The notes beneath the pieces are model-generated. The model saw only the letters and a program-made list of their open reading frames with translations, was not told the DNA's origin and did not search any database. From a virus, in IMG/VR virus record IMGVR_UViG_3300037458_000975: DNA of 49,355 nucleotides. One strand, written 5' to 3'. Position 1 is the stretch's first letter; each line of letters starts with the position of its first letter. Of the stretch, positions 31,522-47,559 are shown one piece after another. The translations under genes were made by a program, and so were the position numbers.

Positions 31522-32163
31522 CTAGTTCCCCTCTCCCATCGTGTTGACCTTGCCAGCTTCCCCCCGCTCGACAATCGCTACGCGCATCCGTTCGAGAGCC
31601 GCCTTCGCCCGCTCCCCGAACATCGTTGCTCGCTTTTCATCCTGCAGAAACGTTGCCAACGACTCCCCTGTGTAGCTAAGCAGCAACTCCGGCTCATACT
31701 TGAGCCAGTCGTTCTCCACTACCGACTCCACAGGAGAATCCTTCTGATAGCAAATCATCAGCAACTGATACCGCTGATCCGGGACTGGCCGGACGCGCAG
31801 GTAGTTCCCCGTCAACGTGTAGGCAGCTGGTGTGCCGAAGGTATTTTCCTCCGGGTATTTTGTCAACAATTCCACCGGGGGAAGTTTCTCCAGCCGTTTC
31901 CGCACCCCCTCAAGTACGATAAACAACCCCGAGGCCTCGGCGTCGTACTCCTTGATAAAGTCCTTGGGCAGTGGAACCCGTTCATCCTCTACAAGGGTGA
32001 GACAGGACAACTCCTCATTCACCAGGAAGTGTGGCAGGAACGAAAGTCCTTCCAGATTGTCCTGAGCCAACTGCATTTCCAATCGGAGTTGCGCCTCGAA
32101 CTCCGGATCAGTCCGATTCCCGAAGCGGCCCTTCATCAGGGAAATAGCATCAGTCAGTTTCAT
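31522..32163 (-). CDS. putative adaptor/neck-type structural protein (213 aa)
   Basis: The ATG at 32163 (M41 of ORF 31522..32283) gives a 14-nt overlap with the upstream gene. The function is guessed from position only. Confidence 0.35.
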   Translation of the reverse strand: MKLTDAISLMKGRFGNRTDPEFEAQLRLEMQLAQDNLEGLSFLPHFLVNEELSCLTLVEDERVPLPKDFIKEYDAEASGLFIVLEGVRKRLEKLPPVELLTKYPEENTFGTPAAYTLTGNYLRVRPVPDQRYQLLMICYQKDSPVESVVENDWLKYEPELLLSYTGESLATFLQDEKRATMFGERAKAALERMRVAIVERGEAGKVNTMGEGN

Positions 32164-32863: not shown

Positions 32864-32876
32864 GGTGCGCGCGCTC

Positions 32877-34502
32877 CTATTCGCCGGTCAGGGTGGCCAC
32901 GCCGACGGCGGCGTTGAAGCTGTTGGCGGGGATGCCCCCGTAGGCGTGCACGACCGCCAGGCGCTGCACGTCGAGCGCGGCGGCGGTGGTGTCGTTCAGC
33001 TTGAAGTCGCCGTTCGCGTCCGCGGTAACCGCGCCCTCCTGCGCGACGGTGGCGGGGTTGGTGCCCGTGGCCATCACGATCATCCGCGCGCTGGTGCTCG
33101 GCGCGGCGTTGGCCGGCACCACCCACTTGCCGACGTAGCTCGTGCCCTGCACGTTGGCCGAGTAGCTCGAGCGGTTGCCGGCGGCGTCGTACGCGCGCAC
33201 CTTGAGGTTCACGCTGGTGCCGTCGGCGAGCCCGCTCTTGGTGTGCGAGAGCGTGTTGCCCTTGTCGATCGCCGTGCCGTCGTTCTCAGAGACTTCGTAG
33301 CCGGTGACACCTACGTTGTCGCTCGAAGCCGACCACCCCCACGTGAGCGTGCTGCGCGTGCGCGAGGAGACGGCGAGGCCGCCAGGGACGGTGGGCGCTT
33401 CGGTGTCGGAGGCGGAAGGCGCATACAGCACCATCACACCGCAGGCCATAAGCACAACGCGAGCCGACGATCCGGCATCGTCAATGCCGCCGATCTGAAG
33501 TGCGTCAATCCCGCCCGTTGTCCAAGCTGACGACGTGTTGGGATCAGTTTCCATGACATGCGTGTAATGCGCCGCAGTACCGGGGTCGCTTGCGGTTGCA
33601 GTAACGGTTGTCCCACCAGATTTAATCTGCGGCGACCAAGACGAGGCTGACGTGTCCTGACGCGCGTACCACTGCCCGAGAACAGCGGAAATCGTGCCGG
33701 ACACTCCGGCCGCCGCCGCGCTTTCCATCCCCATCAACTGCTGCGAACCTGCCGCGTTGGACGTGATGTAGTCCGCTCCGCTCCACGGCAGATCATCCAC
33801 GAGCGCATAGCGATCTGAACCCGTGCTGCACGTCCACGAACCGCTCACGTCCGAATCGGGGTTGACGTGCGCGATAGCGTAGTTTGAAGGGGCATAGGCA
33901 GAATTACTGATCACCACATCGTCAAACTGCGCGGTGTAACCAGACCCGTTGGTGTCAACGTTTTTGCCAAGGATCAAATAGCATCCGTCCGCTCCGCCCC
34001 AATTTTCCGTCCCGGTTGTGATTTCAACGGACTCGTTGATCCGCAAAGATCCAACGCCAGACGCGGACGGAACGGTGAAGTCGATTCGGTAAGTCGTGCC
34101 GGTGGAAAGCGCCGATGTAGAAGTGCCGCGTGAAGTTCCCGTACCATCGACTAATTCAAGCTTCCCGTCGCTGCGAATCCAGATGATTGCTTTGCCGACG
34201 CCACCTTGATAATCAAGCAGCCTGACAAGGCGCTCTGTCGCCGAGGGCAAGGAAACCATCTTGACCTTAAACGAAACGTAGGTCGTCGCACAGACAGGGC
34301 CGAGATACCCTTTCCACGTTCCTGACGTTTCTCCAAGAGCCCCAAACGTACAGTAGCCCGTATTCGATCCAGTAGGATTTACGAGAATGTCGCGCGTTCC
34401 GGAGATCGGCGCGGAAGTGTTGTACGAACAACTTCCGCCCAGCGTCACAAACGCAGAGGTATTAACCCCTTGCTCTGCAGTGAAAAGCGCTTTAATCGCC
34501 AT
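32877..34502 (-). CDS. fibre/receptor-binding protein with jelly-roll (LamG-like) N-terminal part and a fibronectin type III domain
   Basis: FN3 region: EAPTVPGGLAVSSRTRSTLTWGWSASSDNVGVTGYEV...VRAYDAAGNRS (nt ~33138-33407). The N-terminal pattern ...LILGKNVD...AQFDDVVISN is LamG-like. Confidence 0.6.
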   Translation of the reverse strand: MAIKALFTAEQGVNTSAFVTLGGSCSYNTSAPISGTRDILVNPTGSNTGYCTFGALGETSGTWKGYLGPVCATTYVSFKVKMVSLPSATERLVRLLDYQGGVGKAIIWIRSDGKLELVDGTGTSRGTSTSALSTGTTYRIDFTVPSASGVGSLRINESVEITTGTENWGGADGCYLILGKNVDTNGSGYTAQFDDVVISNSAYAPSNYAIAHVNPDSDVSGSWTCSTGSDRYALVDDLPWSGADYITSNAAGSQQLMGMESAAAAGVSGTISAVLGQWYARQDTSASSWSPQIKSGGTTVTATASDPGTAAHYTHVMETDPNTSSAWTTGGIDALQIGGIDDAGSSARVVLMACGVMVLYAPSASDTEAPTVPGGLAVSSRTRSTLTWGWSASSDNVGVTGYEVSENDGTAIDKGNTLSHTKSGLADGTSVNLKVRAYDAAGNRSSYSANVQGTSYVGKWVVPANAAPSTSARMIVMATGTNPATVAQEGAVTADANGDFKLNDTTAAALDVQRLAVVHAYGGIPANSFNAAVGVATLTGE

Positions 34503-34506
34503 TTTG

Positions 34507-37500
34507 TTACCTCAGTTTCACCAATCCGACCGCATCTGCGCCGCTCAGGATGTACCCGATTATTCCCGCATCATAAAATTCCGCGATCCTGTTCGAGACG
34601 CCAACCGTCACGTCCAAAGCGTCAGTCCTTGGTCTCCGCTTGCTGGTTCCGTTGGCATTGACGTAAGGCACCGCTGCATCGGCCACAGGCAGACGATCAA
34701 CGTAGAACGTGCCAGGCGCAGTGCGTTCGACGGTGTAAAACTCGCCGTCCGCCTTGAAGATGACGTACTTGTTTAGGAGGCGGGAGAAGATGATCGAAAG
34801 CCCGCTTCCACCTGACGGCGATCCAATAATGATCGGGTCTTGCAAGATCGACACATACGGTCCGGAGCAAACACCCGCTCCGGTGTGCGTCTTGACCATC
34901 GTTGTGCCGCTCACGTCGTACTCTACGAGCCCCATTGTCGTGCCGTTGATCATCCCCCAACGGACGAGCCGCTTGTTGATCGGGTCAATTGCGCACGAAC
35001 CTTGGTGGAAATCAACACCGGAAATCACCGGCTCGCCCATATCGGTCTGCGTCAGCGATGCCTGATTCCAACGAATGACGCGCTTTGAAAGCGTAGGCGC
35101 GTGCAAAATCATGTAGTAAACGTCGCCGGACAGAATGTCCTGACACGTCCACCAAGCATCAAGCGGGATGCCCTGTCCAGCATCGAGCGGTCTTGATTCG
35201 AGATCAAGCGTATACATCATCCGCCCGAACCCTTTTTTCACCCATCGCTTGTCAGCCCACGTCCACGAGTCGAAATACTGACTGTGCCCCTCGTCACCTT
35301 CCTGAAGGTTTCCACAGCCAAATCGAATGTACGTGTCTCGCGCATCGATAAACTGGTTGCACTGATAGACGTGCCCTGAGTTCGGCGTGTCTCCGAGTCC
35401 AGCGATCTGCCCGGTGTTCGGGTTGGTGCGAACAGCAGGCATGGGCGGATCGGACATCGAATTGAGAAGGTCGGTGTCCGAGAGATACCGCAACTGATTC
35501 CAGCGCCTTGTAGGATCAAGCGGGTCCATAGGGCAGCCATTTAAGCCGCCCTCCCATTGACCCGTAATCACGTTTAGCCCCGACTGAAACTCGCCGCGAT
35601 ACCAATGCCGTTTGAAACTGACCGGCGGAACGAGAACCTCCCATCTCGGAGTCTCGGCAAGCAAGCTGATCCCGATCACGTCAACGCATCGAGTTGCAAC
35701 TCCGGGAGCGCCTCCCATCGGGCCGGCGTTGCCGTGGGACATGAGCCACGCGCCCTCCTGACGCGCAGCGCCGCCGGAGAATCCGATACGGCTGTATGGG
35801 TAGCCGAATCCGTTGTGACCGCCAGTCGGACTGAGCATCCCCGCATCAATCCACGGCTGGCGATCGAGGTGGGTGATCATGTCCGAGTTTGGGATGAAGT
35901 AGTGCGTATATGTCGGCAGGTTTTCTAGCCACTGCGGACGCGCCGCCTTCTTCATCGGACCAACGCGCTGCGTCGCCACGACATAAGGCCCCATCGTTGC
36001 GCCCATTCCGGTCGGGGATCGTGGATACTCACGGCCCCCGAGGGTCGTATCGCACAAAACGCCGGACACCTTGATGTCAGGATGACCGCGCAACTTTAGT
36101 CCGGTGGCGTGCAGGCAGCGCACCCCATTGACTTCGCCCCACAACTCACCATCTGCAACAGGCACGCCGTTGCCATAGGCGTCGTAAGGCCCCGTCACCG
36201 TGTTGAGCTTGATCCCGATTTCTACGTCATACGTTTCGTCCGCTTTGAGAAGCGGGAAGCCGGACGAGTGTGACCCGAGCAGGAGAGGTGTAGTAGAGGT
36301 TGCCTCAATGTCCATCGGGTAAAGGTAAATCCCGAGCGGCCAGAGGTCTTTGTACGGTTGCGGAATCGCGTCGTAGCACCGTTTGTGCGCGATGCCGCAA
36401 TCGAAATAAGTGTCCGCCCCAACGCTCATCGTGAGCGACGGCGAGCAATTCGCCATCGCAACAACAAACTCGCCATTTGCATCTGCATTCAGATCCGGGC
36501 CGGAGTACGTGAACTGCGTCGGATTCGTGGAACCCGAGTAGTTGTTGAGCCAGAACTTATCACCCGAGCGCAACACCGAAAGCGTGTTCGGGTATGCGCG
36601 ATAGACGGTGATCGAAGCCGCTCCTGCGCTCACTCCATTTTTGACTCGCAATGGATCTGCGTACCCAGCCGCCCAGCCCGTCTTGGCGGTCAAGCGAGCG
36701 GAACCGCCCGAGAAGAACCCCCATTCGCCGTTCTTGAAGTTGACCGTACCGCCTGCGAGCAACGCCTGAAATGCGCTGCTGTAATCCTCCGGCTTGGATT
36801 CATCATGCTGCACCGGCGTTGCCGTTGTGATGTTCTCGAACAGCCCCGGCGACCACACTCCTTCTGCAATCTTGTGTTCAATGTTGGTGATAACCACTTC
36901 GCCGTTCGCGTCGGACTTGATGTGTTCCCCGCCGCGTTGCGTAGAGTCAAAACGATGTTGGCGGCGAAACGGCTCCGGGTCATACCCGAGATTCTTTGCG
37001 TTGATGTAAGCGTAATACTTCTCTCCGCCACCCTTAGAGATCAGAGTCCAGCAATTCGGCGGTGCCTTGGAAAGCACGATGCTTGTCGTGCCTGCCGGGT
37101 ACGATTGCTTCGGGCGCAACCAATTCGGCATCCAATAACCACGATTGATGTTCCCTCCGTTCCCGGTGACGGACTCAAACGATCCGTTTGCAACGCGATA
37201 GCCCGCCCGGAAATCCAGCATCGACATGAATTTGGTGTTCTGAAGCGGAACAGGTTTGTCGCGCGGGATGAGCGTCCAACGGAACCACGCTTCGTCAACC
37301 TCTGCCTTGCCCTTCAAGACAAAGCGGTTGGTCATCTCCAATCCATCACGGGAACCGTAACTGTCTACCGTATCAAGGACTGAGTCTTCTTCCTTCAGGT
37401 AGTACCACGTCAGCGACGTGCGCCCTCCGAAGGCCGGATCATTCAGCGTCCGTCCAACGGCTTTCCCTTGCCACTTCGTCCGCGTGTTTGATACACCGGC

Positions 37501-38382
37501 CGGATTCCCCGCCCAAGCGCGATCAGGCCAAGTGTATGCGGTCGATTCTGCTTTCCCGTCGAGCCCGGACCACTGCGCGCCCCACCCGTCCTCAAAAGCA
37601 GAGGCCATGTGCACCGCGCTGTCTGCGCCGATTCCAGCGTCAAGCGCCCCGTAAGAATCCACCAAGCCAGTATCGGTTGTTTCGAGTCCGACGAAATCGC
37701 TCGGCAGAACAAGCAGCCTCGGGGTGTTGACCTCGTACACGTTCAACGAGCTACCGGAGATATAGATGCCCGTGACGTTTAGGCGAATCCTCGCGTCCGT
37801 GATCGTGCCAGTAGGCAATGCCGAAAGGTCGAATTGCAGAATCGTGGAAGGGCCGGTTTCGATAGTCAGCGATTGCTGACCTAACGCAAGCGCAGGGCTT
37901 GCGTCTTGTGAAGCGGAAATGCTCCCGCTGCATGTGCACGGGCAAACTGTCGTTACCCCGCCAATTGTGACGCGCAGAGTCGGAGGCGTTGACCCTAGGC
38001 GAGAGTTGAAGCTGAAATACGTCCCGCCAGAGCGGATGAGTGCTCCGCGATTGGACGCGCGCCACCGCTCAACCAATGCAACGATCCCGGCCCCGGAGAT
38101 GTCGTACTGTCCGAGTGCCGTAGGCCCAACAGGAGAAGCAAACGCATTTGCCCCTTGTGGAGACTGGTTCGCGTCAAGCCAATCACCTGTTCCTCCGTTG
38201 GCCCACGGAATCGCGATCCCGGCATTCCATGAGTCGCCCCGCATCCCGGCGATGCCGTCGTAAAGCTGGGTGTATGAAGAGGTGGACGGCGCTGGTGCCG
38301 GACGATTGACCGACAGCGCGCCAGAGAGCGAGAGCCGCCCCACCGGCCCCACGAGCCCGCTCCGCACCCCGCGCAGCCTCAC
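34507..38382 (-). CDS. large tail spike/receptor-binding protein (1291 aa), possible carbohydrate-binding or depolymerase function
   Basis: GTG start with GAGGAGG 9 nt upstream. The N-terminal region contains ILQFDLSALPTGTITDARIRLNV (DNRLRE-like pattern). The C-terminal part looks propeller-like. GC is lower than the genome average. Confidence 0.55.
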   Translation of the reverse strand: MRLRGVRSGLVGPVGRLSLSGALSVNRPAPAPSTSSYTQLYDGIAGMRGDSWNAGIAIPWANGGTGDWLDANQSPQGANAFASPVGPTALGQYDISGAGIVALVERWRASNRGALIRSGGTYFSFNSRLGSTPPTLRVTIGGVTTVCPCTCSGSISASQDASPALALGQQSLTIETGPSTILQFDLSALPTGTITDARIRLNVTGIYISGSSLNVYEVNTPRLLVLPSDFVGLETTDTGLVDSYGALDAGIGADSAVHMASAFEDGWGAQWSGLDGKAESTAYTWPDRAWAGNPAGVSNTRTKWQGKAVGRTLNDPAFGGRTSLTWYYLKEEDSVLDTVDSYGSRDGLEMTNRFVLKGKAEVDEAWFRWTLIPRDKPVPLQNTKFMSMLDFRAGYRVANGSFESVTGNGGNINRGYWMPNWLRPKQSYPAGTTSIVLSKAPPNCWTLISKGGGEKYYAYINAKNLGYDPEPFRRQHRFDSTQRGGEHIKSDANGEVVITNIEHKIAEGVWSPGLFENITTATPVQHDESKPEDYSSAFQALLAGGTVNFKNGEWGFFSGGSARLTAKTGWAAGYADPLRVKNGVSAGAASITVYRAYPNTLSVLRSGDKFWLNNYSGSTNPTQFTYSGPDLNADANGEFVVAMANCSPSLTMSVGADTYFDCGIAHKRCYDAIPQPYKDLWPLGIYLYPMDIEATSTTPLLLGSHSSGFPLLKADETYDVEIGIKLNTVTGPYDAYGNGVPVADGELWGEVNGVRCLHATGLKLRGHPDIKVSGVLCDTTLGGREYPRSPTGMGATMGPYVVATQRVGPMKKAARPQWLENLPTYTHYFIPNSDMITHLDRQPWIDAGMLSPTGGHNGFGYPYSRIGFSGGAARQEGAWLMSHGNAGPMGGAPGVATRCVDVIGISLLAETPRWEVLVPPVSFKRHWYRGEFQSGLNVITGQWEGGLNGCPMDPLDPTRRWNQLRYLSDTDLLNSMSDPPMPAVRTNPNTGQIAGLGDTPNSGHVYQCNQFIDARDTYIRFGCGNLQEGDEGHSQYFDSWTWADKRWVKKGFGRMMYTLDLESRPLDAGQGIPLDAWWTCQDILSGDVYYMILHAPTLSKRVIRWNQASLTQTDMGEPVISGVDFHQGSCAIDPINKRLVRWGMINGTTMGLVEYDVSGTTMVKTHTGAGVCSGPYVSILQDPIIIGSPSGGSGLSIIFSRLLNKYVIFKADGEFYTVERTAPGTFYVDRLPVADAAVPYVNANGTSKRRPRTDALDVTVGVSNRIAEFYDAGIIGYILSGADAVGLVKLR

Positions 38383-38410
38383 CGCCCGCCCTCCTCTCGC
38401 CCGCGCCCGA

Positions 38411-38815
38411 TCAGTTGGTGATGTTGAGCGTCACCGTGATGCCGGAGCAGCTCACCGCCACCGCGTCGCCGGGGATGGTGACGTCGGCCACGATCATGTC
38501 GCCGCCGCCGCCCGACTCGCTGATCGAGAACGAGAGCACGGCGCTGTTCGCCCTGTCGCGCAGCTGGCCCTTGGCGATGTCGCCCGCCGTCGGCGTGGCC
38601 GAGTTGCTGATGCTGTTGCTCACCGCCTGCGCGGCGCCCGTCACGGTGGTCGCGTTCTGGAACGCGGTGGCCGAGAGGTTGAGCGTGGCGAGTGCGGCGT
38701 CGCCGCTGGTGAGGAGGTGGAAGTCGCCGCTCGCGTCGCCCGATCCGGCGTTGAGCGGCGCGAGCAGCGCGTTCAGCGCGGCGCGCTCGGCGTCGTCACG
38801 AACTGTGATGGTCAT
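38411..38815 (-). CDS. small Ser/Thr/Ala-rich structural protein (134 aa)
   Basis: The ATG at 38815 has GAAGGAGA 7 nt upstream. GC is very high. It has three N-x-S/T sequons (NLS, NAT, NIT). Confidence 0.55.
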   Translation of the reverse strand: MTITVRDDAERAALNALLAPLNAGSGDASGDFHLLTSGDAALATLNLSATAFQNATTVTGAAQAVSNSISNSATPTAGDIAKGQLRDRANSAVLSFSISESGGGGDMIVADVTIPGDAVAVSCSGITVTLNITN

Positions 38816-38984
38816 GGTCGGTCTCCTTCGTAGGCGGGGTTTCAATGCGCTTAACTGAGTCGATTCGTCCGACGAACTGGCGCGTCTCGGTACGACCGTC
38901 GGCGAAGTGGAAAGTCAGCGGAAAGTGCAGCACCACATGGCCCAGTGTCGAGGGTCCACCCGGTACAACGGGTTTCTCATCCAT
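38796..38984 (-). CDS. hypothetical small protein (62 aa)
   Basis: It overlaps the stop of the upstream glycosyltransferase by 8 nt and the next gene by 20 nt. Its coding status is uncertain. Confidence 0.35.
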   Translation of the reverse strand: MDEKPVVPGGPSTLGHVVLHFPLTFHFADGRTETRQFVGRIDSVKRIETPPTKETDHDHHSS

Positions 38985-39624
38985 CTTGAAGCTCCTTCAC
39001 ATCCTGGTGGGTGTAGGTACGATAGCCAACATGCCCGATCTCACGGGACAGGTCGTGGTCTACCCAACTGTCGTAGCCTGCAGCCTGAAGAACCTGGCTG
39101 CAGTACACATCCTCGCCGCAGTAGTTCTGAACGTCGGGAATCCAGTCCATCAGGAAGTGCGGGGGCTTGGTCTTGCGGAAGCACTCGGCCTCGATCAGGG
39201 CCACAGCCATCCCAACGTGTTGGACCTTCTGCAGGCCGGTCTTGCCGCGGGAATCCAGTCGATTCCCAGCGAGGTCATGCGCCACTGGAAGGATCGGTTC
39301 GACCCTGGTGGTGCAGTTGGCGGCCACAAAGGGCTTGCGGTGGGCCAAGAGTCGATGAAGGGTGTCTCGGGGAAAGGACATGTCGGAGTCAAGGAACAGA
39401 AAGTGGCTCGAGCCACGCTGCAACCCCTTCTTGACCATGATCTGCCGTGAGGCGCCGATCATACTTGTCTCCACCCGACAGACGGCAAGCCGCTGCGACT
39501 TCGCCCCGGGAACGCGCATCCCCTCAAAATAAGCCATCAGCATTCCCAGCGAGTATCCCATCTCGCACCGCCAATAGCCGTTGGAGGGAACACACACCTG
39601 AACATCTATGTCCCGATTCTTCAT
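38977..39624 (-). CDS. GT-A fold glycosyltransferase (GT2-like)
   Basis: VCVPSNG at the N-terminus, DxD motif FLFLDSDMSF, then GMAVALIE and GEDVYCSQVLQAAGY, all typical of GT2 enzymes. Confidence 0.75.
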   Translation of the reverse strand: MKNRDIDVQVCVPSNGYWRCEMGYSLGMLMAYFEGMRVPGAKSQRLAVCRVETSMIGASRQIMVKKGLQRGSSHFLFLDSDMSFPRDTLHRLLAHRKPFVAANCTTRVEPILPVAHDLAGNRLDSRGKTGLQKVQHVGMAVALIEAECFRKTKPPHFLMDWIPDVQNYCGEDVYCSQVLQAAGYDSWVDHDLSREIGHVGYRTYTHQDVKELQDG

Positions 39625-39836
39625 TGTAGGGCACCCTCACCGAACTTGTCAAGCCCACGCGATCGGACCTGGATCGTGTAGGCGCGCACTTCGCTCAACG
39701 GCACCATGATGCCTCGGTACCCAGAAGGGAGTGACCCGGCCATCACGACCTCCTGGACGAAGCCATCCCGGTCGTCCTCGAGGTACGCCCCTCGCCGAAA
39801 GTACGGGTTCGGATGCACAACGACGTAGAGACTCAT
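39621..39836 (-). CDS. hypothetical small protein (71 aa)
   Basis: ATGA overlaps at both ends. It is the C-terminal part of the otherwise spurious ORF 39621..40436. Confidence 0.45.
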   Translation of the reverse strand: MSLYVVVHPNPYFRRGAYLEDDRDGFVQEVVMAGSLPSGYRGIMVPLSEVRAYTIQVRSRGLDKFGEGALQ

Positions 39837-40576
39837 GACGCCTCCGCAAGGGCTTGATCCATCTCCTGCCACAGAACCGGGTGCTCGAACTGCTGCTGGC
39901 GCTTCCGGACGATCTGCAGGCAGAGCCCCTCCATTACCCCATTTTCCTGGAGACTGTGGAACAGCTCTCGATCGGCCTTCCCCGCGTCGGTCTGGGGGTT
40001 GGTGTAGTCCTCCTCCGCGAGCTCCGCGTAGGTCGCGTCCTTCTCCGCCTTCCCCACGAGCCAATGCTGATGCTCGAAGATCACATCCGCAGCATATCGC
40101 AAGCTGCCGGTGCTCAGCCCGATCTGTCGCCAGGCCACGTCGAGCCAGTTGTGCTTGAAACCAGGGACGATCATCCCTCCGACAGTGCGGGCCAGCTCTC
40201 CCCCCACGCAGAAGTGCGTGCAGAGCTGGTGGCGGTGCACGCAGTCGCTCGGGTATGAAAGGTACCACTGCTCCGCGAGGGACTCGAGCTTGCCGAGACC
40301 TCGCCGGGTGCGCAGCACAATGTCGTCCGCGATGAAGCCGAAGAAGCCGTCCGCCTTGTGCTCCGCGAACCACCACTCCAACCGCTCGCCCAGCATCTTC
40401 ACCGGCACCTCGTGCAGGGTCCAACCCTTGGGCCACTGGATCGCCCAGTAGTCCTCTTTCCGCGGATCACCTTCCCACACGAGCACCGCCAGCGGTGTAC
40501 CCTTCTCCATCATGTGCCAGCTCATCGCGAGATGCGCGAGGCGCTCCGGCCTCATATACGTCGGACAGACCCACAT
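39833..40576 (-). CDS. putative glycosyltransferase (GT-A-like)
   Basis: N-terminal CPTYMRPERL and an acidic IADDIV motif. The start is either ATG at 40576 or GTG at 40579, and it abuts the epimerase stop. Confidence 0.5.
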   Translation of the reverse strand: MWVCPTYMRPERLAHLAMSWHMMEKGTPLAVLVWEGDPRKEDYWAIQWPKGWTLHEVPVKMLGERLEWWFAEHKADGFFGFIADDIVLRTRRGLGKLESLAEQWYLSYPSDCVHRHQLCTHFCVGGELARTVGGMIVPGFKHNWLDVAWRQIGLSTGSLRYAADVIFEHQHWLVGKAEKDATYAELAEEDYTNPQTDAGKADRELFHSLQENGVMEGLCLQIVRKRQQQFEHPVLWQEMDQALAEAS

Positions 40577-41583
40577 CACATCCTCCCCTCAAGCCAGGTG
40601 CTCGGCATCCGATCGGACGGAAGCTCGATCGGAAGGTAGTAGTTAAACGGACGGGGGCCGGCAGCACGGATATACTCGACAAGCCCCATCAGGCCGGTCA
40701 GGGTCGTAGTCCGCGGATAGAACCCGAACCACTCCTTGATCTTCTTGCTTGAGCAATGCGCGTGCGCGACCTCGGTTGGGCGGGCGGGCAGGTAGATCGG
40801 GTTGTGCTCTATCCCGATGATGTCAGCGAGCGTGCGGGCGAGGCACTCGATAGTGATTTCGTTTCCGTCCGGGCCGATATTGAAGATTTCTCCCGGGCAA
40901 TTCACCGACACTGCCAACTTGCACAGCGTATCCACCACGTCGTCAACGTAGCTGAACGAACGGGTTTGCTGCCCATCGCCGTAGATGACAGGGCGCTTTC
41001 CCTGCAGCATCCGATTTGTCATGATCGCAGCGACATTCCGAAACGGGTCGTCGAACTTCTGACGAGGGCCGTAGATGTTATGCGGAACCGCAATCACCCA
41101 CTCCACCCCATGTACCTCACACAGCGTGCGGAGCACGCCCTCAGCCGCAACCTTCGCGATCCCGTAGGGGTCCTGCGGCCTCGGCTCCATCGCCTCGATG
41201 AACGGGGGTTGCCACTGCCCCACGCCGTAGCGAGCCATGCTCGAGCAGAATACGATCCGGCGCACCCCAGCCGCGATCGCGTCCGTGATGACCCTCACGC
41301 TCATCTCGAAGATGCTCCGCGTGATAGTCACCGGGCTGAACACTGACAGTCCCTCGTGCGGGTGTGCGGCGCAGTGGTAGAGCACATCCACCCCTGCGAG
41401 GTCCTGCTTGATCCCGAGCTCGAGGATGTCCTGCTTGTGCCACCACTCGACCCCGTCGGGGATGTTGCCGACCTCGCCCGCAGATAGGTTGTCACACCCC
41501 ATTACCTGATGCCCGCGAAGCATCAACGCCTCCGCGAGGTTACTGCCCAGAAACCCAGCAATTCCGGTGATGTAGATTCTCAT
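40576..41583 (-). CDS. NAD-dependent sugar-nucleotide epimerase/dehydratase (extended SDR)
   Basis: The ATG at 41583 gives MRIYITGIAGFLGSNL (GxxGxxG). Also present: catalytic CSS...YGIAK (YxxxK), PHNIYGPRQ and GDGQQTRSFSYVDD. Confidence 0.9.
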   Translation of the reverse strand: MRIYITGIAGFLGSNLAEALMLRGHQVMGCDNLSAGEVGNIPDGVEWWHKQDILELGIKQDLAGVDVLYHCAAHPHEGLSVFSPVTITRSIFEMSVRVITDAIAAGVRRIVFCSSMARYGVGQWQPPFIEAMEPRPQDPYGIAKVAAEGVLRTLCEVHGVEWVIAVPHNIYGPRQKFDDPFRNVAAIMTNRMLQGKRPVIYGDGQQTRSFSYVDDVVDTLCKLAVSVNCPGEIFNIGPDGNEITIECLARTLADIIGIEHNPIYLPARPTEVAHAHCSSKKIKEWFGFYPRTTTLTGLMGLVEYIRAAGPRPFNYYLPIELPSDRMPSTWLEGRM

Positions 41584-41601
41584 AGTTATCGTTGCACCTC
41601 G

Positions 41602-41628
41602 AAAAAATGGGGAGACCGAAGTCTCCCC
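41602..41628 (-). terminator. rho-independent terminator after the major capsid gene
   Basis: On the minus strand, ggggagac-TTCG-gtctcccc is followed by A-T6, 30 nt after the capsid stop. Confidence 0.85.
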
Positions 41629-41657
41629 CAAAGTCACCAACCAAGGAGGAGGTGGTG

Positions 41658-42896
41658 TTAGACTTGGATCGCAGCGTACATCATCGAGCGCATGTGGTGG
41701 AACTCGAATCCGCACTCCGTCAGCCACTGACCCTTCTTCTGGTCAGCATCGACGGCCTGGATGTTGTCCTGCGGAGTCGTGTCACGGCCGCGGAGCGGGC
41801 GGTACTTGATCCCGGCGGGGTTGATGAAGAACGCGCCGTTGGTGAACCTCGTGTTGACGTTCATCAGCGGGTGGGTCTTCAGGTAGAAGGTCCCCTGCGG
41901 GATCGTCCACTTGTTCAACTCCATGCCGAAGTACTTGATCGTGCCCTCGTTGTTGAGCCGGACGGAGCTGTCACCCTTCGCGATCTTGTTCAGGTAGTTC
42001 AGGAACCCGTTGCCGCACAGGACGATCCGCTCATTGCCGGCGCCGGTGTAGCCGTAGTCGAACATCTTGTAGGTCGCATCGAGGAAGTCGTCCGCCGTAA
42101 CCGCCGTCGTGGTCCAGATCTTGATCGTCGGCTTCGCCGTGGCGTCGTAGGCGCTAGTCAGGGCCCAATACAGCCCGCCCGTGTAGCGCTTCGGTAGCCC
42201 CGCCGATCCCGTCGTCTCGTACCTCGTGCCGAACAGCGCCGCCTGCTCGAGCGCGACGGAGTGGTCGAACATCCGGCGCTTCTTGTCGTTCTTCAGCGGA
42301 TCACCAGTGCGGAACCGGGTTGCCAGCGCCGTGCCGGTGTGGTTGTACGAGGTCTTGAAGATCTGCGTGTAGTTGTAGAACTTCGTCGGCGCTCGATGGA
42401 CGGACTTCGGCGACCCAGCACCTTCCTCGAACGCCGAGCCCACTTTCAGCAGATAGGCATTCGTGGCGATGGTAGCGGCGGTGGTCGAGGCCGCACCCCG
42501 AGTCACAGCGATCGCATTCGACGCGCTCGGATCGGCCGAGACCTCGACGAGTTCGAAGTTGTACCCGGTCGAGGCGACCTCCAGGGCCTCCACCATCAGC
42601 AGATCCCCGGCGACCAGATCGAGTGCGTGGGCGTCCTCGGAGGTGCCAAGGGTGAGGGACAGCTGCCCCGTCGTGGCGACTGCAGTCACCTTCACCCGAA
42701 TCGGCCGACGCTCTTCCTCGTACCAAGCGAACTCCGGATCGTCGGTCGACTCCTCCCCCATCTTCGACATCAGGGCCGTGAGCGGCGTCATCCCGTTCGG
42801 GTCACGCCAGAGGATCGTCTCACGGAAGTTCTTGGGGCGTTCGTCGGTTGCCCACTGGGTGGTCCCAGTGCCCCGAAGGCCAGCAATACCAGGCAT
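41658..42896 (-). CDS. major capsid protein (HK97-fold type)
   Basis: Its 412 aa, its position after the scaffold, and the strong terminator behind it all fit. The N-terminal pattern RPKNFRETIL..DPNGMTPLTALMSKM...DPEFAWYEEE is typical of podovirus capsid families. Confidence 0.8.
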   Translation of the reverse strand: MPGIAGLRGTGTTQWATDERPKNFRETILWRDPNGMTPLTALMSKMGEESTDDPEFAWYEEERRPIRVKVTAVATTGQLSLTLGTSEDAHALDLVAGDLLMVEALEVASTGYNFELVEVSADPSASNAIAVTRGAASTTAATIATNAYLLKVGSAFEEGAGSPKSVHRAPTKFYNYTQIFKTSYNHTGTALATRFRTGDPLKNDKKRRMFDHSVALEQAALFGTRYETTGSAGLPKRYTGGLYWALTSAYDATAKPTIKIWTTTAVTADDFLDATYKMFDYGYTGAGNERIVLCGNGFLNYLNKIAKGDSSVRLNNEGTIKYFGMELNKWTIPQGTFYLKTHPLMNVNTRFTNGAFFINPAGIKYRPLRGRDTTPQDNIQAVDADQKKGQWLTECGFEFHHMRSMMYAAIQV

Positions 42897-42907
42897 TTCG
42901 TTTCCTT

Positions 42908-43843
42908 TCAGTCCTCAGACTCTTCAGCCATTTGGACCCAGATGTTGGAAGGTTTTGCCGGAGCCGCACCGGAGCCACCAACCCCTGCCGGCCGGAAGCC
43001 GGACGGAGCGGGGACCGCAGGCTGCGGAGCCGGAGTCGTGGTTGCGGGCGGCTGGATACCCAGCAGCGTCCGCGAGAGCGTGCGAATCCCCTCGACAGCT
43101 TGCTGGGGGGTCGCGGTTGGATTCATCTGCCTCCAGAACGCACCGATCTGCAGCACTTCGGGCTCCCGCCCCTTGAGGTCGTCGGCGCCGGAGAAAAGCA
43201 TGTTCCGGGCCTCCTGCTCACGATCGCGGAGAGTCGTCATCTGCGCAAACATCTGCGGGAAGGCTTGATGCATCAGAGCCTGGACATCTGCCAGAACCGC
43301 CTCGTGCAAGGCGGCAGCAACCTCCGGCACAACGACCTCGGGCTCGGTCAGAAACTTGGCACTTTGCTCCTCGCTCAAGCGGTACTGAGCGGCGAGCGCC
43401 TGCCGGCGTTTCACCTGCTGCTCCGCGGTGTCCACGGCCTTCGGGGGCTCAGTGGACGGAGCGGGCGCAGCGGATTGGGTAGCGAACAGCGCTTTCAGCT
43501 GTTCGAGCGTAACGGGCGTCCCCACTTGCGGAGCGGCAGCCGGCTCAGCCGGAGGAGGAACGGCGGGAATGGCTACCGCGGATTCCGCAGGGGGGACATC
43601 GGGCTTGGCGGGAGCGGTTTCGGCTTCGGCCGTCGGCGCTTCAACCGCAGGAGTCTCGTCTTGCGCAGCGTCATCGGAGGGCGTATTCAGGTCGTGGGAA
43701 ATGAAATCATCCCAGCGCACGCCGGTCGCCTCGGGCGACGGCTCGCTCGGGGGTTCGGGAGCAATCGGAGCAGCAGCGCCGGGCGGAAGCAGCGGCGGGG
43801 CGCCCTCGGGAACAGCCGGAATCACATTCTCAGTTGCCATCAC
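42908..43843 (-). CDS. scaffolding protein
   Basis: Ala/Pro/Glu-rich, low-complexity and helical. It lies between the portal and capsid genes. Confidence 0.6.
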   Translation of the reverse strand: MMATENVIPAVPEGAPPLLPPGAAAPIAPEPPSEPSPEATGVRWDDFISHDLNTPSDDAAQDETPAVEAPTAEAETAPAKPDVPPAESAVAIPAVPPPAEPAAAPQVGTPVTLEQLKALFATQSAAPAPSTEPPKAVDTAEQQVKRRQALAAQYRLSEEQSAKFLTEPEVVVPEVAAALHEAVLADVQALMHQAFPQMFAQMTTLRDREQEARNMLFSGADDLKGREPEVLQIGAFWRQMNPTATPQQAVEGIRTLSRTLLGIQPPATTTPAPQPAVPAPSGFRPAGVGGSGAAPAKPSNIWVQMAEESED

Positions 43844-44126
43844 GAACCTCCAACAGTTTTAGTGTGTCCGCGAGTTCCTGCTTTGCGTCAGCAACACAGC
43901 GGCCGGGATACTCTGCGGCGATCCCGAGACCGTTGACTTCTCCCAGCATCCGAAAGTGGGCCGGAAGGTCCTCCAGTTTGGTGATCGCGTACTCGACCGA
44001 GGCCCGGCGGAGCCCGATCTGCTCGCGCAGGAACTCGAGATAGCGCTCCCACATCGGGTGGGACTGGAGCGTTTTCCACAGTTCCAGCTCCTCCCGCAGC
44101 GATTCGATGCGTTCCTCTGGCGTCAT
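43830..44126 (-). CDS. hypothetical protein (98 aa)
   Basis: The ATG at 44126 forms an ATGA overlap with the portal stop. It is the C-terminal part of ORF 43830..44372. Confidence 0.5.
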   Translation of the reverse strand: MTPEERIESLREELELWKTLQSHPMWERYLEFLREQIGLRRASVEYAITKLEDLPAHFRMLGEVNGLGIAAEYPGRCVADAKQELADTLKLLEVRDGN

Positions 44127-46051
44127 CCGGTCGGCCCCATTCCCTGCAGCTGGATTTGATTCGGCGGCTGGCCCGGCTCCCCGCGGAGCGGCACGACGTT
44201 GCCGGCCTGGGCCTGCCCCGCGAGATCCGTCCCGGGCGGCGCCACCTGCACGCGGAAGCGGTTGATGTTCTTCAGCCCCGCGAGGTTCCCGACCCAGCCA
44301 AAGATCTTCACCAGGTCGTACCCCGCGGCGAGTTGGGGGATCTGCGCCATCTGGCCCATGATGGTCTGCCACAGGTTGGCCTGGGCATAGCGATCCACGG
44401 GCAGCGTCCCGTCCACCGGCACGAAATCAAAGAACCCCGCAATTGACTCAGGCGTCACTTCCATCGTCTTGTCCTGCTCGTACATCGCTAGATCACCAAT
44501 GATCCGATATCGGCGGGCTTCTGTCAAGTTTTGTTGCGTCCGCTGGAGTGCCTTCTGAGCGAGGGGTTCGAAGCCCATCGCGCTGTAGAACTCGGATAGG
44601 GTCTTGAGACGGTTCGCCCCGAGGGTGTTCGACGCACGGACTTCGGTCGCGGTCTTGCGGCCGCCAGCGTTCACCATCCCCATGATGTTATCGTTCACGC
44701 CGGAGATCTTCTGCACCAGCTCCTCAACCAACAGCCCGTCGTTGATGTGGGACTTGGTGATATCCGCGACAGGGAGCTGGGCAATCGCTGCCCGCACGTC
44801 GCGGTTGATTCCGCCGGGCTTCAGCCGGATCAGCTTCCCCGGCGCCGGATCGCGGAGGTCGTCCATGTTGACCATCTGCGGATCGACCACGAACTGGTTG
44901 TTCAGCGATGCCCGGACGTTGTAGAAGTGGGTGTTGAACAGCCACGTCATCGTGTCCTGGAGAGGCTGGAAGATGTCGAGCCACGAACGGCTGAACAGGT
45001 TGTAGCCATGCGGCTCGACCTCGACAATATCGTAGGGGAAGCGGTTCGACAGCTCGCCGAGCGGTTCCGCCCCGAAGACGATGTTTGAGCTGGCGGTGAC
45101 GTTGAAGACCCAGATTTCCCTCATCGACGTATCTGCGAGACCCCACTCTTTCGGGTTCAGGCGGACGCAGATCTCGTAGCCCTTGATCACCCCCGGGGGA
45201 AGGGTGCTGAACGCAGTCTCCTCCCCCGGCAGGGTCTCGGTCGTGTTGCTCCCTCCGCGCTCCCAGGCGCGCTGCAACCCCTTCGAGTCCTCGATCGCGG
45301 CCTTCTCGTTGAAGTACCGGCCGGTCTCAACCCCCTGCTCGAACTCGTGGATCGGGATCTCGCAGTAGCGGCAGACGAACTCGCCCGTCTGGAACTTCCA
45401 CATCGAGACTCGCGGATCGGGGTAGAAGTCCTTCGGCCGGACGTTGAAGAGGCGGTTGCCCTCGTAGCCCACCGTGTCCGCGACCATCTCAACCTTCTTG
45501 GTCTTGCCGGGCATCGGGATGCCGAGGAAGGTGACCGGCTGCTCCTCGAACTTCCTCGCGCGGATGATCTCCTTCTCCCAGTAGTGCCCGACCACCCCGA
45601 AGCCGTACTTCATCGGATCGAGCAGCCAGATATACAGCGGGACGAGCCACTGACCCACCCGGAGCTGGTAGTCCATCACCGCTTCGACACCGAGGATCTG
45701 GTTCTCCGTCTCCCCGTGCCGGCCCATGAACTGCATGATCGGGGAGCGGCTCAGGAATACCGAAGTCAGATAGGTGTGCGCGGTCATCAGGATCGCGTAG
45801 CTGTACGGCACCACGACGGTCGTGTACTGCGGTAGGCCCTGATCCCGGAGCTCCTTCCGCTTGATGTCGAGCTCCCGCTCCGGCATGTAGGCGCAGAACT
45901 GCTCGTCGAGCTTGTCGAACTCCGAGTACCGCGAGGTCAAGGTGTTGCGGGACAGGTCGAGCCGCTCCTTGAGCTTCTGCGACAGGTCGTCGTGCGGGCG
46001 GCTGCCAAAACGGAGTCGACCGGCGAGCGGGTTTTCAGCCATTACGGGCAT
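44123..46051 (-). CDS. portal protein
   Basis: A 642-aa protein immediately downstream of and overlapping the large terminase, with a basic/Gly-rich C-terminal tail. The call rests on position and size. Confidence 0.75.
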   Translation of the reverse strand: MPVMAENPLAGRLRFGSRPHDDLSQKLKERLDLSRNTLTSRYSEFDKLDEQFCAYMPERELDIKRKELRDQGLPQYTTVVVPYSYAILMTAHTYLTSVFLSRSPIMQFMGRHGETENQILGVEAVMDYQLRVGQWLVPLYIWLLDPMKYGFGVVGHYWEKEIIRARKFEEQPVTFLGIPMPGKTKKVEMVADTVGYEGNRLFNVRPKDFYPDPRVSMWKFQTGEFVCRYCEIPIHEFEQGVETGRYFNEKAAIEDSKGLQRAWERGGSNTTETLPGEETAFSTLPPGVIKGYEICVRLNPKEWGLADTSMREIWVFNVTASSNIVFGAEPLGELSNRFPYDIVEVEPHGYNLFSRSWLDIFQPLQDTMTWLFNTHFYNVRASLNNQFVVDPQMVNMDDLRDPAPGKLIRLKPGGINRDVRAAIAQLPVADITKSHINDGLLVEELVQKISGVNDNIMGMVNAGGRKTATEVRASNTLGANRLKTLSEFYSAMGFEPLAQKALQRTQQNLTEARRYRIIGDLAMYEQDKTMEVTPESIAGFFDFVPVDGTLPVDRYAQANLWQTIMGQMAQIPQLAAGYDLVKIFGWVGNLAGLKNINRFRVQVAPPGTDLAGQAQAGNVVPLRGEPGQPPNQIQLQGMGPTG

Positions 46052-47559
46052 CCTCTGAATTCAATCTGGCGCTTCGTGTCGGAGTCGGGGAGGGTCGTGA
46101 ACTCCCCCTCGAGCGTGACGGAGCCGCGGAGTTCGGGGTTGACGCTCATGATGCCGAGCGCAATCGCATCGACGATGTCGTCTTTTTGGTCCTTGATCGT
46201 CGGGTCGTAGTCGTCCATCTGCTTGATCGCCTTCGATTGCGACGGGTGCATCACCAGGTGGCCAAAGGCCACGAGCCCGGGGATCGCCTGCATGATCCGA
46301 TCGGACTTCTTCCGGCGGTCCTGGATCTGATCCACCGCCACGAAGATCCGGCGCTTCTGCATCTCCTGCTCGATGTACCAGGCGAGGACCCGCTGGAACG
46401 AGATCGACTCCACGACCACCCGGATGGGGCTCCAGCGGAGGATCAACTCGAACAGCCGATTGACCGCCGCATCAGGCAGCACCCCGCGCTCCGCAAACAC
46501 GTCGAGCACATAAACGTCCGCCCCGAGGAAACCTAGCGCCACCATCGCAAAGTCGTCCGCGGTCTTGGCCTCGGACGATGCCGGGTCGATCGAGACGATC
46601 ACCCCCATCTGCTCCGGCAGTACGTCCCAATACCGGAGCTTGGTAACGTCGATGGCCTTGTACTCGGAGGCGACCAGCTGGCACTCCATCTCCCGCATCC
46701 AGAGGGAGTACTGCCCCCTGCGGGTAGCCGCGGTCTTTTCCGCGACCAGCGTATCTGTGCTCCAGCGATCCGGCCATGCGCTGTGACCCTTGTCGTCGAA
46801 GCACGAGACGGAGAGGCCGTTCCACTGCGGATCTTCCATACAGGCCTCGATCGCATCCTCCTTGTGGAAGGGGGTCTGGCAGAACGCGATCTTTGCGAGG
46901 GGCTGCTCGCTGGCGGGGGCGAGGGAATTGAAGAGGGCACCGAACAGGAGCTCCTCGATCTTTTCCCGCTGCTCGATTGTGGCGGTGTTTTCGTCAGTCA
47001 GCACGTCGTCCACGATGATCAGATCCGGCCGGAAGTCGTCCGGGTTGAAGCCGCGGATCTGACCGGTAATGCCCATCGCCAGGACGGTGATCGGATACTG
47101 ATCCACCCCGTGGTGGATTTCGAGGTACTCGTCGGTCCACTTGTCCCCCGGCCGAAGGCCGAAGGTGTTCGCCCAGAGCTTGTTGTAGAGGATCTGCTTC
47201 TTGAGCCAGCGGAGGCTCATCGCCGCGTGGAGCTGGGCCGACCCGACGTACATGATCGTGTGTGAGATGCCGTAGGCGATCCGCTGCGACGTGAAGACCC
47301 GGAGCATCGTGGTCTTGGCGGAGCCGCGGAACAGCTTGAACGCGTTGTAGCGCGCGGGACTGTAGAGGCGTTCCCCGACCTCGGCGTGGAAGGGGGCGAA
47401 GGGTTGCCGGAAGGTGCGGGGGAAGAAGACCTTCCCGTAGGTCAAGAGGGAGGTCGCCCCGAGCTGGACCGCTTCGGTCGGGGACAGCTTGAGGTCAGTC
47501 GGCGCGTTCATGCCCGTATTTGGCCTTGCGTTCCCACGCATCGTGCTCGCGGAAGTCAT
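46042..47559 (-). CDS. terL: terminase large subunit
   Basis: Walker A-like FRGSAKTT and Walker B LIIVDDVL. The C-terminal nuclease-type acidic motifs are VSIDPAS and DDFAMVALG. The start is uncertain (47559, 47541 or 47511). Confidence 0.85.
   Translation of the reverse strand: MTSASTMRGNARPNTGMNAPTDLKLSPTEAVQLGATSLLTYGKVFFPRTFRQPFAPFHAEVGERLYSPARYNAFKLFRGSAKTTMLRVFTSQRIAYGISHTIMYVGSAQLHAAMSLRWLKKQILYNKLWANTFGLRPGDKWTDEYLEIHHGVDQYPITVLAMGITGQIRGFNPDDFRPDLIIVDDVLTDENTATIEQREKIEELLFGALFNSLAPASEQPLAKIAFCQTPFHKEDAIEACMEDPQWNGLSVSCFDDKGHSAWPDRWSTDTLVAEKTAATRRGQYSLWMREMECQLVASEYKAIDVTKLRYWDVLPEQMGVIVSIDPASSEAKTADDFAMVALGFLGADVYVLDVFAERGVLPDAAVNRLFELILRWSPIRVVVESISFQRVLAWYIEQEMQKRRIFVAVDQIQDRRKKSDRIMQAIPGLVAFGHLVMHPSQSKAIKQMDDYDPTIKDQKDDIVDAIALGIMSVNPELRGSVTLEGEFTTLPDSDTKRQIEFRGCP

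Follow-up and report, generated by a model that had tools for sequence, protein, structure and literature searches.

Gene content of the post-capsid cassette

A group of four genes encoding a nucleotide-sugar epimerase, two glycosyltransferases (GTs) and a small soluble protein lies directly behind the capsid gene in IMG/VR record IMGVR_UViG_3300037458_000975, a metagenomic contig of an SU10-like podophage. The whole stretch of 49,355 nucleotides (nt) was analysed and is referred to as the window. We gave the four genes the working names SDR, GTa, s70 and GTb, which together form the enzyme cassette (41583-38977), and named the two genes that follow them s62 and p134. Interest in the cassette centres on its core enzyme, GTb, which occurs widely and at a fixed position across a large group of uncultured phages. 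All genes of the capsid-cassette region are encoded on the minus strand, and the features of the cassette and its upstream border are as follows.

41658-42896, minus: major capsid protein (MCP), 412 amino acids (aa), SU10-type (Pfam SU10_MCP, 7.6e-41; phrog_1328 major head protein, 8.7e-46)
41602-41628, minus: intrinsic terminator separating the capsid gene from the cassette, hairpin at 41628-41609
40576-41583, minus: SDR, 335 aa, extended short-chain dehydrogenase/reductase (SDR) nucleotide-sugar epimerase/dehydratase (PF01370, 2.7e-44; phrog_540 'nucleotide-sugar epimerase', 3.5e-54)
39833-40576, minus: GTa, 247 aa, divergent GT-A-like glycosyltransferase (phrog_14945 'glycosyltransferase', 4.3e-19)
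39621-39836, minus: s70, 71 aa, small soluble protein (homologs adjacent to GTb in loci L006, L007, L008, L040 and L080)
38977-39624, minus: GTb, 215 aa, minimal GT-A glycosyltransferase (structure model, Foldseek and family profile)

The terminator is located in the 74-nt spacer that follows the capsid stop codon. Its hairpin, GGGGAGAC-UUCG-GUCUCCCC, then AUUUUUU, has a stem of 8 bp (6 of them G-C) capped by a UUCG loop and trailed by a U6 tract, and it is the highest-ranked terminator-like site in 15 kb (scan of 32000-47000). The RNA fold of the capsid-SDR spacer, taken at 77 nt, has a z of -2.96 and was beaten by 2 of 200 shuffles, in agreement with an initial annotation of this DNA, which had placed a strong terminator directly behind the capsid gene. 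Comparable post-MCP terminators were seen in loci L007 and L008, and a terminator scan of Microcystis phage Mel-JY34 gave no post-capsid terminator. The structure probably lowers transcription into the enzyme genes.

Beyond the terminator, six genes (SDR, GTa, s70, GTb, s62 and p134) are chained by overlaps, through the junctions TGATG (SDR/GTa), ATGA (GTa/s70) and ATGA (s70/GTb) and overlaps of 8 nt (GTb/s62) and 20 nt (s62/p134). This chain had been correctly described in the initial annotation, as had the presence of two interleaved tiny open reading frames (ORFs), s70 and s62. Both are conserved elsewhere and are therefore real genes, but the second (38796-38984) belongs to the next module. 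Membrane segments are absent from all six proteins: the Kyte-Doolittle mean over 19 residues peaks at no more than 1.39, against a usual threshold of 1.6.

The MCP of the window is about 80 aa longer than the canonical 330-aa SU10-type form and is 53% identical to that of Mel-JY34. Groups with 330-aa and with ~400-aa capsid proteins both belong to Pfam SU10_MCP, and cultured relatives of this SU10-like podophage infect Microcystis and Vibrio.

GTb is a minimal GT-A glycosyltransferase

The AlphaFold2 (AF2) model of GTb is confident (pLDDT 95.8, pTM 0.92). Foldseek matched it with probability 1.0 to the human collagen galactosyltransferase COLGALT1, A197 of Sulfolobus turreted icosahedral virus (STIV), the glycosyltransferase domain of LH3, yeast Mnn9 and mimivirus R699. 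At E<=1e-3 the PDB gave 173 matches; among the 50 that were listed, essentially all are GT-A glycosyltransferases, the exception being vaccinia H3. A profile of the GTb family likewise matched A197 (4.7e-06) and Mnn9 (1.8e-05) in the PDB. The family is large, with 96 relatives found by a word-seeded search and at least 493 among 600 IMG/VR pattern matches.

Residues R60, D79, D81, E171, D172, D189, H198 and G200 are invariant in 39 family sequences sharing 29-57% identity. They fall at the GT-A DxD, ED and C-terminal His positions and, by analogy with characterised enzymes, may have the corresponding roles, and their invariance at such divergence suggests that catalysis has been retained. These residues bear on the possibility that GTb is a structural virion protein that keeps the GT fold without catalysis. 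Its fixed place between the capsid and adaptor genes would fit such a role, as would the presence of vaccinia H3 among the weaker fold matches, this envelope protein being a solved virion protein with a GT fold. A noncatalytic role is scarcely credible, however. The DxD, ED, Asp and His residues are invariant, GTb occurs together with a second GT and a nucleotide-sugar enzyme, and a place behind a terminator is unsuited to a stoichiometric protein.

GTb had been annotated as a clear GT2-like glycosyltransferase on the basis of the motifs FLDSDMSF and GEDVY. The motifs are real, holding the invariant D79, D81, E171 and D172 within a GT-A fold, but GTb of the window has no Pfam match to GT2 (PF00535), and its match to Anp1 (PF03452; 3.4e-4, 20.6 bits) falls below the gathering score of 28.8. 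A few members of the family do carry precomputed PF03452 or PF00535 matches. Because GTb lies below every Pfam GT2/Anp1 threshold, GT2-like is too specific a name, and the defensible label is GT-A fold, family unassigned.

We also identified a near-consensus sigma-70-like promoter sequence (TTGACA-18-TACAAT, 11/12 matches) at window positions 39623-39652, minus, ending at the GTb start codon. It is probably a chance occurrence because its -35 hexamer arises from the conserved RGLDK codons of s70; if real, it would give a leaderless GTb transcript.

GTb holds a fixed position in most of the phage head modules surveyed

For the synteny survey, ORFs were called in the 80 top-matching IMG/VR loci as well as the other fetched loci (numbered with the prefix L) and searched with capsid, adaptor and neighbour queries. 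An SU10-type MCP gene lies upstream of GTb on the same strand in 62 of 87 GTb loci, and within 500 bp in 55 of these 62. Less than 1.5 kb of upstream sequence was available for 15 of the 87, and for 10 no MCP was recognised despite at least 1.5 kb; in four of these 10 the MCP gene is instead several kb downstream of GTb. Since a single large clade accounts for the majority of the loci, the 62 are not independent events. Among GenBank phage records, a GTb homolog is present in five (Mel-JY34 and four Manatee Spring genomes), and in each it comes just after the capsid gene.

The dominant gene order is MCP, a conserved ~100-aa protein (s100), GTb and the SU10 adaptor, and in this canonical group the ends of GTb overlap s100 and the adaptor gene. 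GTb is kept at its head-module place across divergent SU10-type lineages, down to ~30% identity. Such a survey of related phages had been proposed with the initial annotation, and its outcome extends beyond SU10-type phages to five BPP-1-like prophage loci (four from Betaproteobacteria and one from a Rickettsiales metagenome-assembled genome [MAG]), which have the order portal, GTb, Bbp19 and GP7-type capsid.

These positions have to be set against the view that the GTs act on a non-virion target, such as a small molecule or, in the service of takeover or defence evasion, a host protein, and that the post-capsid slot is a tolerated insertion hot-spot. Relatives do differ in what lies between the MCP gene and the structural gene that follows, be it small basic or acidic proteins, a methyltransferase, an SDR or one to two GTs; slots flanked by terminators are classic sites of accessory genes; and many bacterial homologs are found in unrelated contexts. 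GTb itself, however, is not variable, being retained at the divergence noted above, and in the canonical group it is translationally coupled to structural genes through its overlaps with s100 and the adaptor. We consider a non-virion target rather improbable.

Separately, a non-homologous GT9 (heptosyltransferase-like) gene was found between a Phage_capsid_4 capsid gene and an SU10-adaptor gene in locus L167 (5020-7792), which is the GTb slot.

GTa and the epimerase

Searches of Pfam and NCBIfam returned no match for GTa. Its family is nevertheless extensive, comprising 2535 cluster representatives at E<=1e-3 in an exhaustive profile search. The signatures of the family are an N-terminal CPTYMRPERL (PTxxRPxxL) and ADD, a DxD-like motif. 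In an alignment of 58 members, R9, D85 and D180 are invariant, P5 and D84 are conserved at >=90%, and D111, H142, D146 and H169 are nearly invariant. The IADDIV motif, from which a GT-A-like protein had been proposed, is thus real and contains two of the conserved aspartates (D84 and D85), and the match to phrog_14945 agrees with that proposal.

The best PDB profile match of GTa is the GT2 enzyme 9jma, a non-significant hit (E=0.069) in which the CPTYMRPERL and ADD motifs are aligned. An AF2 model built on a 7-sequence alignment is poor (pLDDT 56). Foldseek searches with this poor model retrieved nearly exclusively GT-A-fold nucleotide-sugar enzymes, at TM-scores of ~0.3 and with two at E<=1e-3, and GtrB was a weak partial fold match. 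We conclude with moderate confidence that GTa is a divergent GT-A-like enzyme. Homology between GTa and GTb was considered and rejected, as hhalign of the two family profiles finds none.

GTa homologs annotated as glycosyltransferases were detected by tblastn in 67 actinophage records (63 Streptomyces and 4 Arthrobacter) at 28-30% identity. Genes 79-81 of Streptomyces phage Kenrey (L089 5369-7093) are a triplet of glycosyltransferase, glycosyltransferase and nucleotidyltransferase that includes the GTa homolog.

The SDR protein matches PF01370 with 151.8 bits (gathering cutoff 20.9), its residues 3-237 covering profile positions 1-240 of 240. GIAGFLG (GxxGxxG) at residues 7-13, YGIAK (YxxxK) within PYGIAKVAAE and upstream Ser residues in FCSSMARYG align with the corresponding motifs of the 4zrm epimerase, so the description of this protein as an extended-SDR epimerase/dehydratase with GxxGxxG and S...YxxxK motifs can be retained. 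The best PDB match is 4zrm, a UDP-glucose 4-epimerase (1.2e-41), followed by 6wjb, 7ys8 and 6dnt, and the closest solved relatives are UDP-hexose and UDP-N-acetylhexosamine (UDP-HexNAc) 4-epimerases. Because these nearest relatives are 4-epimerases, the same reaction class is likely for the SDR protein. Its score against the NCBIfam GalE equivalog (TIGR01179) is 73.5 bits, below the cutoff of 262.3, and no other NCBIfam equivalog (LegB, RmlB and others) attains its cutoff.

Modularity of the cassette

Loci L006-L008, with an SU10-type MCP of ~400 aa, share the order MCP, ~175-aa methyltransferase, GTa, s70 and GTb. The SDR gene of the window fills the slot of this methyltransferase, two of the three versions of which weakly resemble rhamnosyl O-methyltransferase. 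In Mel-JY34 and L025 GTb stands alone directly behind the MCP gene, and in L040 and L080 it is followed by s70. Because relatives carry GTb alone or GTb with s70, GTb is the conserved core of the cassette, to which GTa, s70 and a tailoring enzyme form an add-on. GTa, which most GTb-bearing phages lack, is the add-on GT, and the SDR protein is the variable tailoring or donor-supply enzyme.

No Pfam or PHROG match and no hydrophobic segment were found for s70. In the long-MCP sub-lineage its gene accompanies GTb, on one side or the other, and the protein may serve GTb as a partner or determine its specificity. GTa-type domains also occur in single polypeptides fused to GTb-like/Anp1-like or GT2 domains, tetratricopeptide (TPR) repeats or Maf-type PF01973 domains (P0145, P0164, P0175, P0107, P0200, P0112 and P0241), which suggests that GTa- and GTb-type modules may work together in other systems as well.

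Proteins of 90-100 aa with a strongly acidic C-terminus (e.g. ...FEKMADEDDD) recur just behind SU10-type capsid genes, at the following places.

L001 9765-10049
L007 9196-9489
L040 5694-5990
L080 5729-6001
L002 10030-10329

This acidic family has a marginal match (E=0.039) in Vibrio phage VS-ABTNL-3, in which tblastn detects no GTb. Neither these proteins nor s100 could be linked to the GTs as acceptors; s100 is confined to the clade with a 330-aa MCP and is not Ser/Thr-rich.

Cellular homologs of GTb and GTa

We examined 76 bacterial and archaeal loci from a genome scan with a bacterial sub-alignment, a sample that is biased toward an alphaproteobacterial clade. Eleven of them, from closely related alphaproteobacterial MAGs, have the order GT4, an unknown gene (in most), GTb, flagellin, FlbT and FlaF (L092/L093-L104, e.g. 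L092 6029-10664). The GTb homologs in these loci, at 31-36% identity, are directly upstream of the flagellin gene, and TPR-glycosyltransferase and methyltransferase genes are found nearby in the longer loci. From its gene content, this arrangement looks like an uncharacterised flagellin-glycosylation island.

Two single cases involve other surface proteins. In Telmatospirillum siberiense (L126 6983-10630) a GTb homolog is directly upstream of a 960-aa autotransporter gene, and in Microvirga massiliensis (L143 6971-14432) one is downstream of a TpsB/TpsA two-partner-secretion pair. PF01973, to which some GTa-type domains are fused, is the Maf flagellin-glycosyltransferase domain (10.1101/2020.06.03.131540). 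The associations with flagellin, autotransporter, TpsA and PF01973 suggest protein acceptors, though not generally. Bacterial context was dropped as a general argument: beyond the 11 flagellin-linked loci, five of the 76 are prophage head modules, and all five scanned upstream neighbours with a Pfam match are hrpB, which is uninformative.

Proposed function

Of the readings considered, we favour one in which the cassette glycosylates a virion protein in the cytoplasm, probably one on the capsid surface, and give it about even odds. A virion protein is the most likely target because GTb holds the post-capsid place in most of the related loci surveyed, and to judge from gene position such a protein would be the acceptor of GTb. 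Virion glycosylation had been suggested in the initial annotation, together with modification of host surface glycans as the other option. The former is supported by a fixed position in two types of head module, by the solubility of the proteins, by relatives of GTb that act on proteins or viral particles, by the flagellin-side homologs and by the unrelated GT9 gene in the GTb slot of L167, and it has precedents in the mycobacteriophages and STIV discussed below; what did not hold was the proposed link to p134 (see below).

The cassette would then be a late-expressed, cytoplasmic protein-glycosylation set of an SU10-like podophage. Reduced read-through of the post-capsid terminator would provide small, catalytic amounts of the four soluble proteins. 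The SDR enzyme may convert a host UDP-hexose or UDP-HexNAc into its 4-epimer, a donor that the host may lack. GTb, as a predicted metal-dependent GT-A enzyme, would transfer a sugar to a co-made virion protein, likeliest the capsid protein or a protein on the capsid surface, the MCP being a candidate acceptor. GTa could append a further sugar, resulting in a longer or different glycan than in relatives with GTb only, and s70 would act as a conserved small partner. A glycan coat of this kind would alter the particle surface and thereby its stability, stickiness or recognition.

Several observations weigh against this proposal. The synteny survey covered the best 80 IMG/VR matches, and one large clade dominates it, so that the counts are not independent. 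At least four loci (L041, L052, L061 and L065) have the MCP gene several kb downstream of GTb. Most bacterial GTb homologs are in uninformative contexts, the flagellin link being confined to one clade. The virion proteins scanned have no notable run of collagen-like repeats and no Ser/Thr-rich acceptor tail. The poor structure model of GTa counts on the same side, and GT-A enzymes that act on lipid-linked glycans may also be soluble. Finally, the GTa homologs of large Streptomyces phages lie amid DNA-replication and nucleotide-metabolism genes rather than in the head module, and one of 58 GTa relatives weakly matches (0.0013) the Pfam family TAGT (TET-associated DNA glycosyltransferase).

The last two findings would fit enzymes that glycosylate bases of the phage DNA to evade restriction, in the manner of T4 glucosyltransferase or TET-associated GTs, the more so as the Streptomyces phage homologs are beside a second GT and a nucleotidyltransferase. 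In the window, however, the genes follow the capsid gene within the head module rather than accompanying the replication genes, and bacterial homologs of GTb adjoin flagellin and adhesin genes. Pfam and PHROG scans of 20 early and middle ORFs (seven without any match) revealed no dCMP/dUMP hydroxymethylase, TET/JBP dioxygenase or C5-methyltransferase; the proteins found were a nuclease, an ATPase, a ParB-N6/N4 methylase (the only DNA methylase), PolA, a primase-like protein and an HNH endonuclease. Modification of phage DNA is very unlikely on this evidence.

Two of these early and middle genes have unusual architectures. A ParB N-terminal domain is fused to an N6/N4 DNA methyltransferase at window positions 11442-12755, plus. 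The family A DNA polymerase gene (12981-16186, plus) includes an 816-aa ORF with an N-terminal uracil-DNA-glycosylase-superfamily domain, a 3'-5' exonuclease and an intein/Hint insertion; the polymerase domain begins in this ORF and is completed in a separate overlapping 252-aa ORF.

It is also possible, though unlikely, that the cassette modifies a host envelope glycoconjugate (lipopolysaccharide [LPS] O-antigen or core, capsule or a lipid-linked glycan) and so could block adsorption of progeny or competing phages to infected cells and debris. An epimerase with two GT-A enzymes is typical of polysaccharide gene clusters, undecaprenyl-acceptor GT-A enzymes are often soluble, 9jma (the nearest, non-significant PDB profile match of GTa) acts on a lipid-linked oligosaccharide, and the methyltransferases at the equivalent slot resemble, weakly, rhamnosyl O-methyltransferase. 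On the other side, no cassette protein has a membrane segment, unlike GtrABC-type systems, and GtrB is only a weak partial match to GTa. The phage has its own DNA polymerase (PolA, with an intein) beside a primase-like protein and a nuclease, and no integrase was found among the ORFs scanned, which did not include every small ORF; it is from these two features that the phage lifestyle was inferred. A moron-like function would leave the fixed place of GTb next to the capsid and adaptor genes, and its BPP-1-like place, unexplained, and late expression behind the capsid gene seems poorly timed for envelope remodelling.

More broadly, and with rather less than even expectation, virion glycosylation by GTb could be a general feature, its spread being evident from the at least 493 IMG/VR relatives and the copies in BPP-1-like prophages. 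GTb would then be a widespread undescribed capsid-glycosylating family and a near-core head-module gene in environmental SU10-like podophages; capsid glycans would be common in aquatic and soil phages of Gram-negatives and cyanobacteria, with add-on enzymes diversifying the glycan; and the same family would glycosylate alphaproteobacterial flagellin. If the present cassette does glycosylate its virion, self-glycosylation would extend to a different and very large group of uncultured podophages, with GTs that lack detectable sequence similarity to the Che8 enzymes tested (see below), and a function could be assigned to small 'hypothetical proteins' encoded by hundreds of viral contigs. This would also suggest that capsid glycans serve ends unrelated to animal immunity, e.g. 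stability, stickiness or the avoidance of non-productive binding. The cultured Microcystis phage Mel-JY34, with GTb directly behind its capsid gene, offers a testable model, and the flagellin-side bacterial homologs point to an uncharacterised family of flagellin-glycosylation enzymes.

Comparison with known glycosylation systems

To our knowledge, only a few mycobacteriophages have been shown to glycosylate their own particles with phage-encoded enzymes, and their virion glycans shield the particles from antibodies. In mycobacteriophages, capsids and tail tubes are glycosylated (PMC12363180), and Che8 gp108-110, Corndog gp38 and Myrna represent the system of Freeman et al. 2023 as summarised elsewhere (PMC12363180, PMC11256854). 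The mycobacteriophage systems resemble the present cassette in that soluble GTs encoded by the phage are proposed to modify its structural proteins while these are still in the cytoplasm, and in both cases several small GTs of ~200-250 aa are encoded side by side. The Corndog GT gene (gp38) is likewise part of the head module, where it immediately precedes the protease and capsid genes, whereas Che8 gp108-110 are at the far right end of the genome and not behind the capsid gene. The mycobacteriophages are siphoviruses or myoviruses of actinobacterial hosts, in contrast to the SU10-like podophage studied here, and unlike their systems this cassette includes a nucleotide-sugar epimerase. Glycosylation has been demonstrated in the mycobacteriophages, whereas here it is predicted.

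When GTa and GTb were searched by tblastn in 50,697 phage records, no mycobacteriophage was returned. Homology to Che8 gp109 and gp110 was rejected, hhalign of the GTa and GTb family profiles being non-significant with probabilities of at most 5% in a comparison that left out Corndog gp38. A literature search turned up no paper on GTs behind SU10-type capsid genes or on Mel-JY34. The cassette had been put forward as an undescribed system; given the lack of significant similarity to Che8 gp109/gp110 and of a paper on the arrangement, this is true only within limits, as the general phenomenon is known from mycobacteriophages.

Among proteins of solved structure, GTb is closest to STIV A197, its best PDB profile match and second-best fold match (TM-scores 0.62/0.69 over 210 columns). 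Both are virus-encoded minimal GT-A proteins of ~200 aa without extra domains. A197 is thought, though this is unproven, to glycosylate the major capsid protein B345, which is known to be glycosylated (PMC10551542). The two proteins share 14% identity, STIV belongs to a PRD1-like lineage of archaeal viruses, the gene contexts differ, and donor and acceptor are likewise unproven. COLGALT1 (GT25), the LH3 domain and Mnn9/Anp1 (GT62) have in common with GTb the GT-A fold, the DxD motif and metal dependence, and act on proteins or yeast mannan. They differ from it in sequence (10-15% identity) and in their extra domains, which are absent from GTb, and no collagen-like acceptor is present among the virion proteins.

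TPR-type flagellin glycosyltransferases belong to bacterial flagellin O-glycosylation loci, with which the cassette is connected by the GTb homologs beside flagellin and by the fusion of GTa domains to Maf-type PF01973. Maf proteins are flagellin glycosyltransferases (10.1101/2020.06.03.131540). In both settings a protein that later forms a surface polymer would be modified in the cytoplasm; the acceptor here, however, cannot be flagellin, and the flagellin-linked homologs are one uncharacterised clade. GtrABC-type seroconversion systems, which are membrane proteins of temperate phages, are comparable as phage-encoded glycosyltransferases that alter a surface glycan. They differ from the soluble proteins of this cassette, whose genes are in the head module of a phage with no integrase among the scanned ORFs (the limit on small ORFs applying as above).

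Neighbouring genes and the downstream module

Upstream of the cassette, the window has the following head genes.

46042-47559, minus: large terminase, upstream of the capsid gene
44123-46051, minus: portal, upstream of the capsid gene
42908-43843, minus: scaffold-like gene, just before the MCP gene

Downstream of the cassette, the chain continues into a separate module.

38796-38984, minus: s62, 62 aa, first gene of the next module (in L167, L168 and L169 its homologs immediately precede those of p134; blastp 4e-12 to 6e-3)
38411-38815, minus: p134, 134 aa, small Ser/Thr/Ala-rich protein (23 homologs)
32877-38382, minus: 1291-aa and 541-aa proteins, the rest of the mobile module in common with L169

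The N-x-S/T sequons of p134 number exactly three (residues 46, 54 and 131), and its S+T content is 22%. The initial annotation was correct as to the sequons and the composition, but the link that it suggested between this protein and the GTs is unsupported, because p134 belongs to a separate module, GTs occur without it and its homologs do not conserve the sequons. The majority of loci with GTb are without p134, and L169, which has the module, has no GT in 18 kb. No enzyme of the oligosaccharyltransferase (OST) or N-glycosyltransferase (NGT) type, for which N-x-S/T sequons matter, was identified in the cassette. We therefore rejected p134 as a sequon-bearing acceptor. It is probably a virion component that occurs independently of GTs, with a weak match to phrog_3758 'virion structural protein' (0.0038), and it always precedes a protein of ~1000-1450 aa.

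In the window this large protein is the 1291-aa one, for which no family or PDB match was found. The 541-aa protein has an fn3 domain match and weak matches to tail-protein PHROGs, and both, where the initial annotation had placed fibre genes, may be fibre or host-recognition proteins. The order s62, p134 and large protein recurs in three unrelated backgrounds (L167-L169), and a module of five genes (s62, p134, 1291-aa, 541-aa and 237-aa) is common to the window and the siphophage contig L169, where it is placed between the capsid gene and the head-tail connector genes. The module is located as follows.

Window 32150-38984, minus
L169 8801-15193
L167 8812-15948
L168 701-8394

Identity between the window and L169 is 89% for p134, 91% for the N-terminus of the 541-aa protein, 60% for the 237-aa protein and 28-35% over parts of the 1291-aa protein. 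This suggests that a podophage and a siphophage recently exchanged the module, which may serve host recognition or form a head fibre. The structural region ends with a single 2184-aa ORF at window positions 17620-24174, minus.

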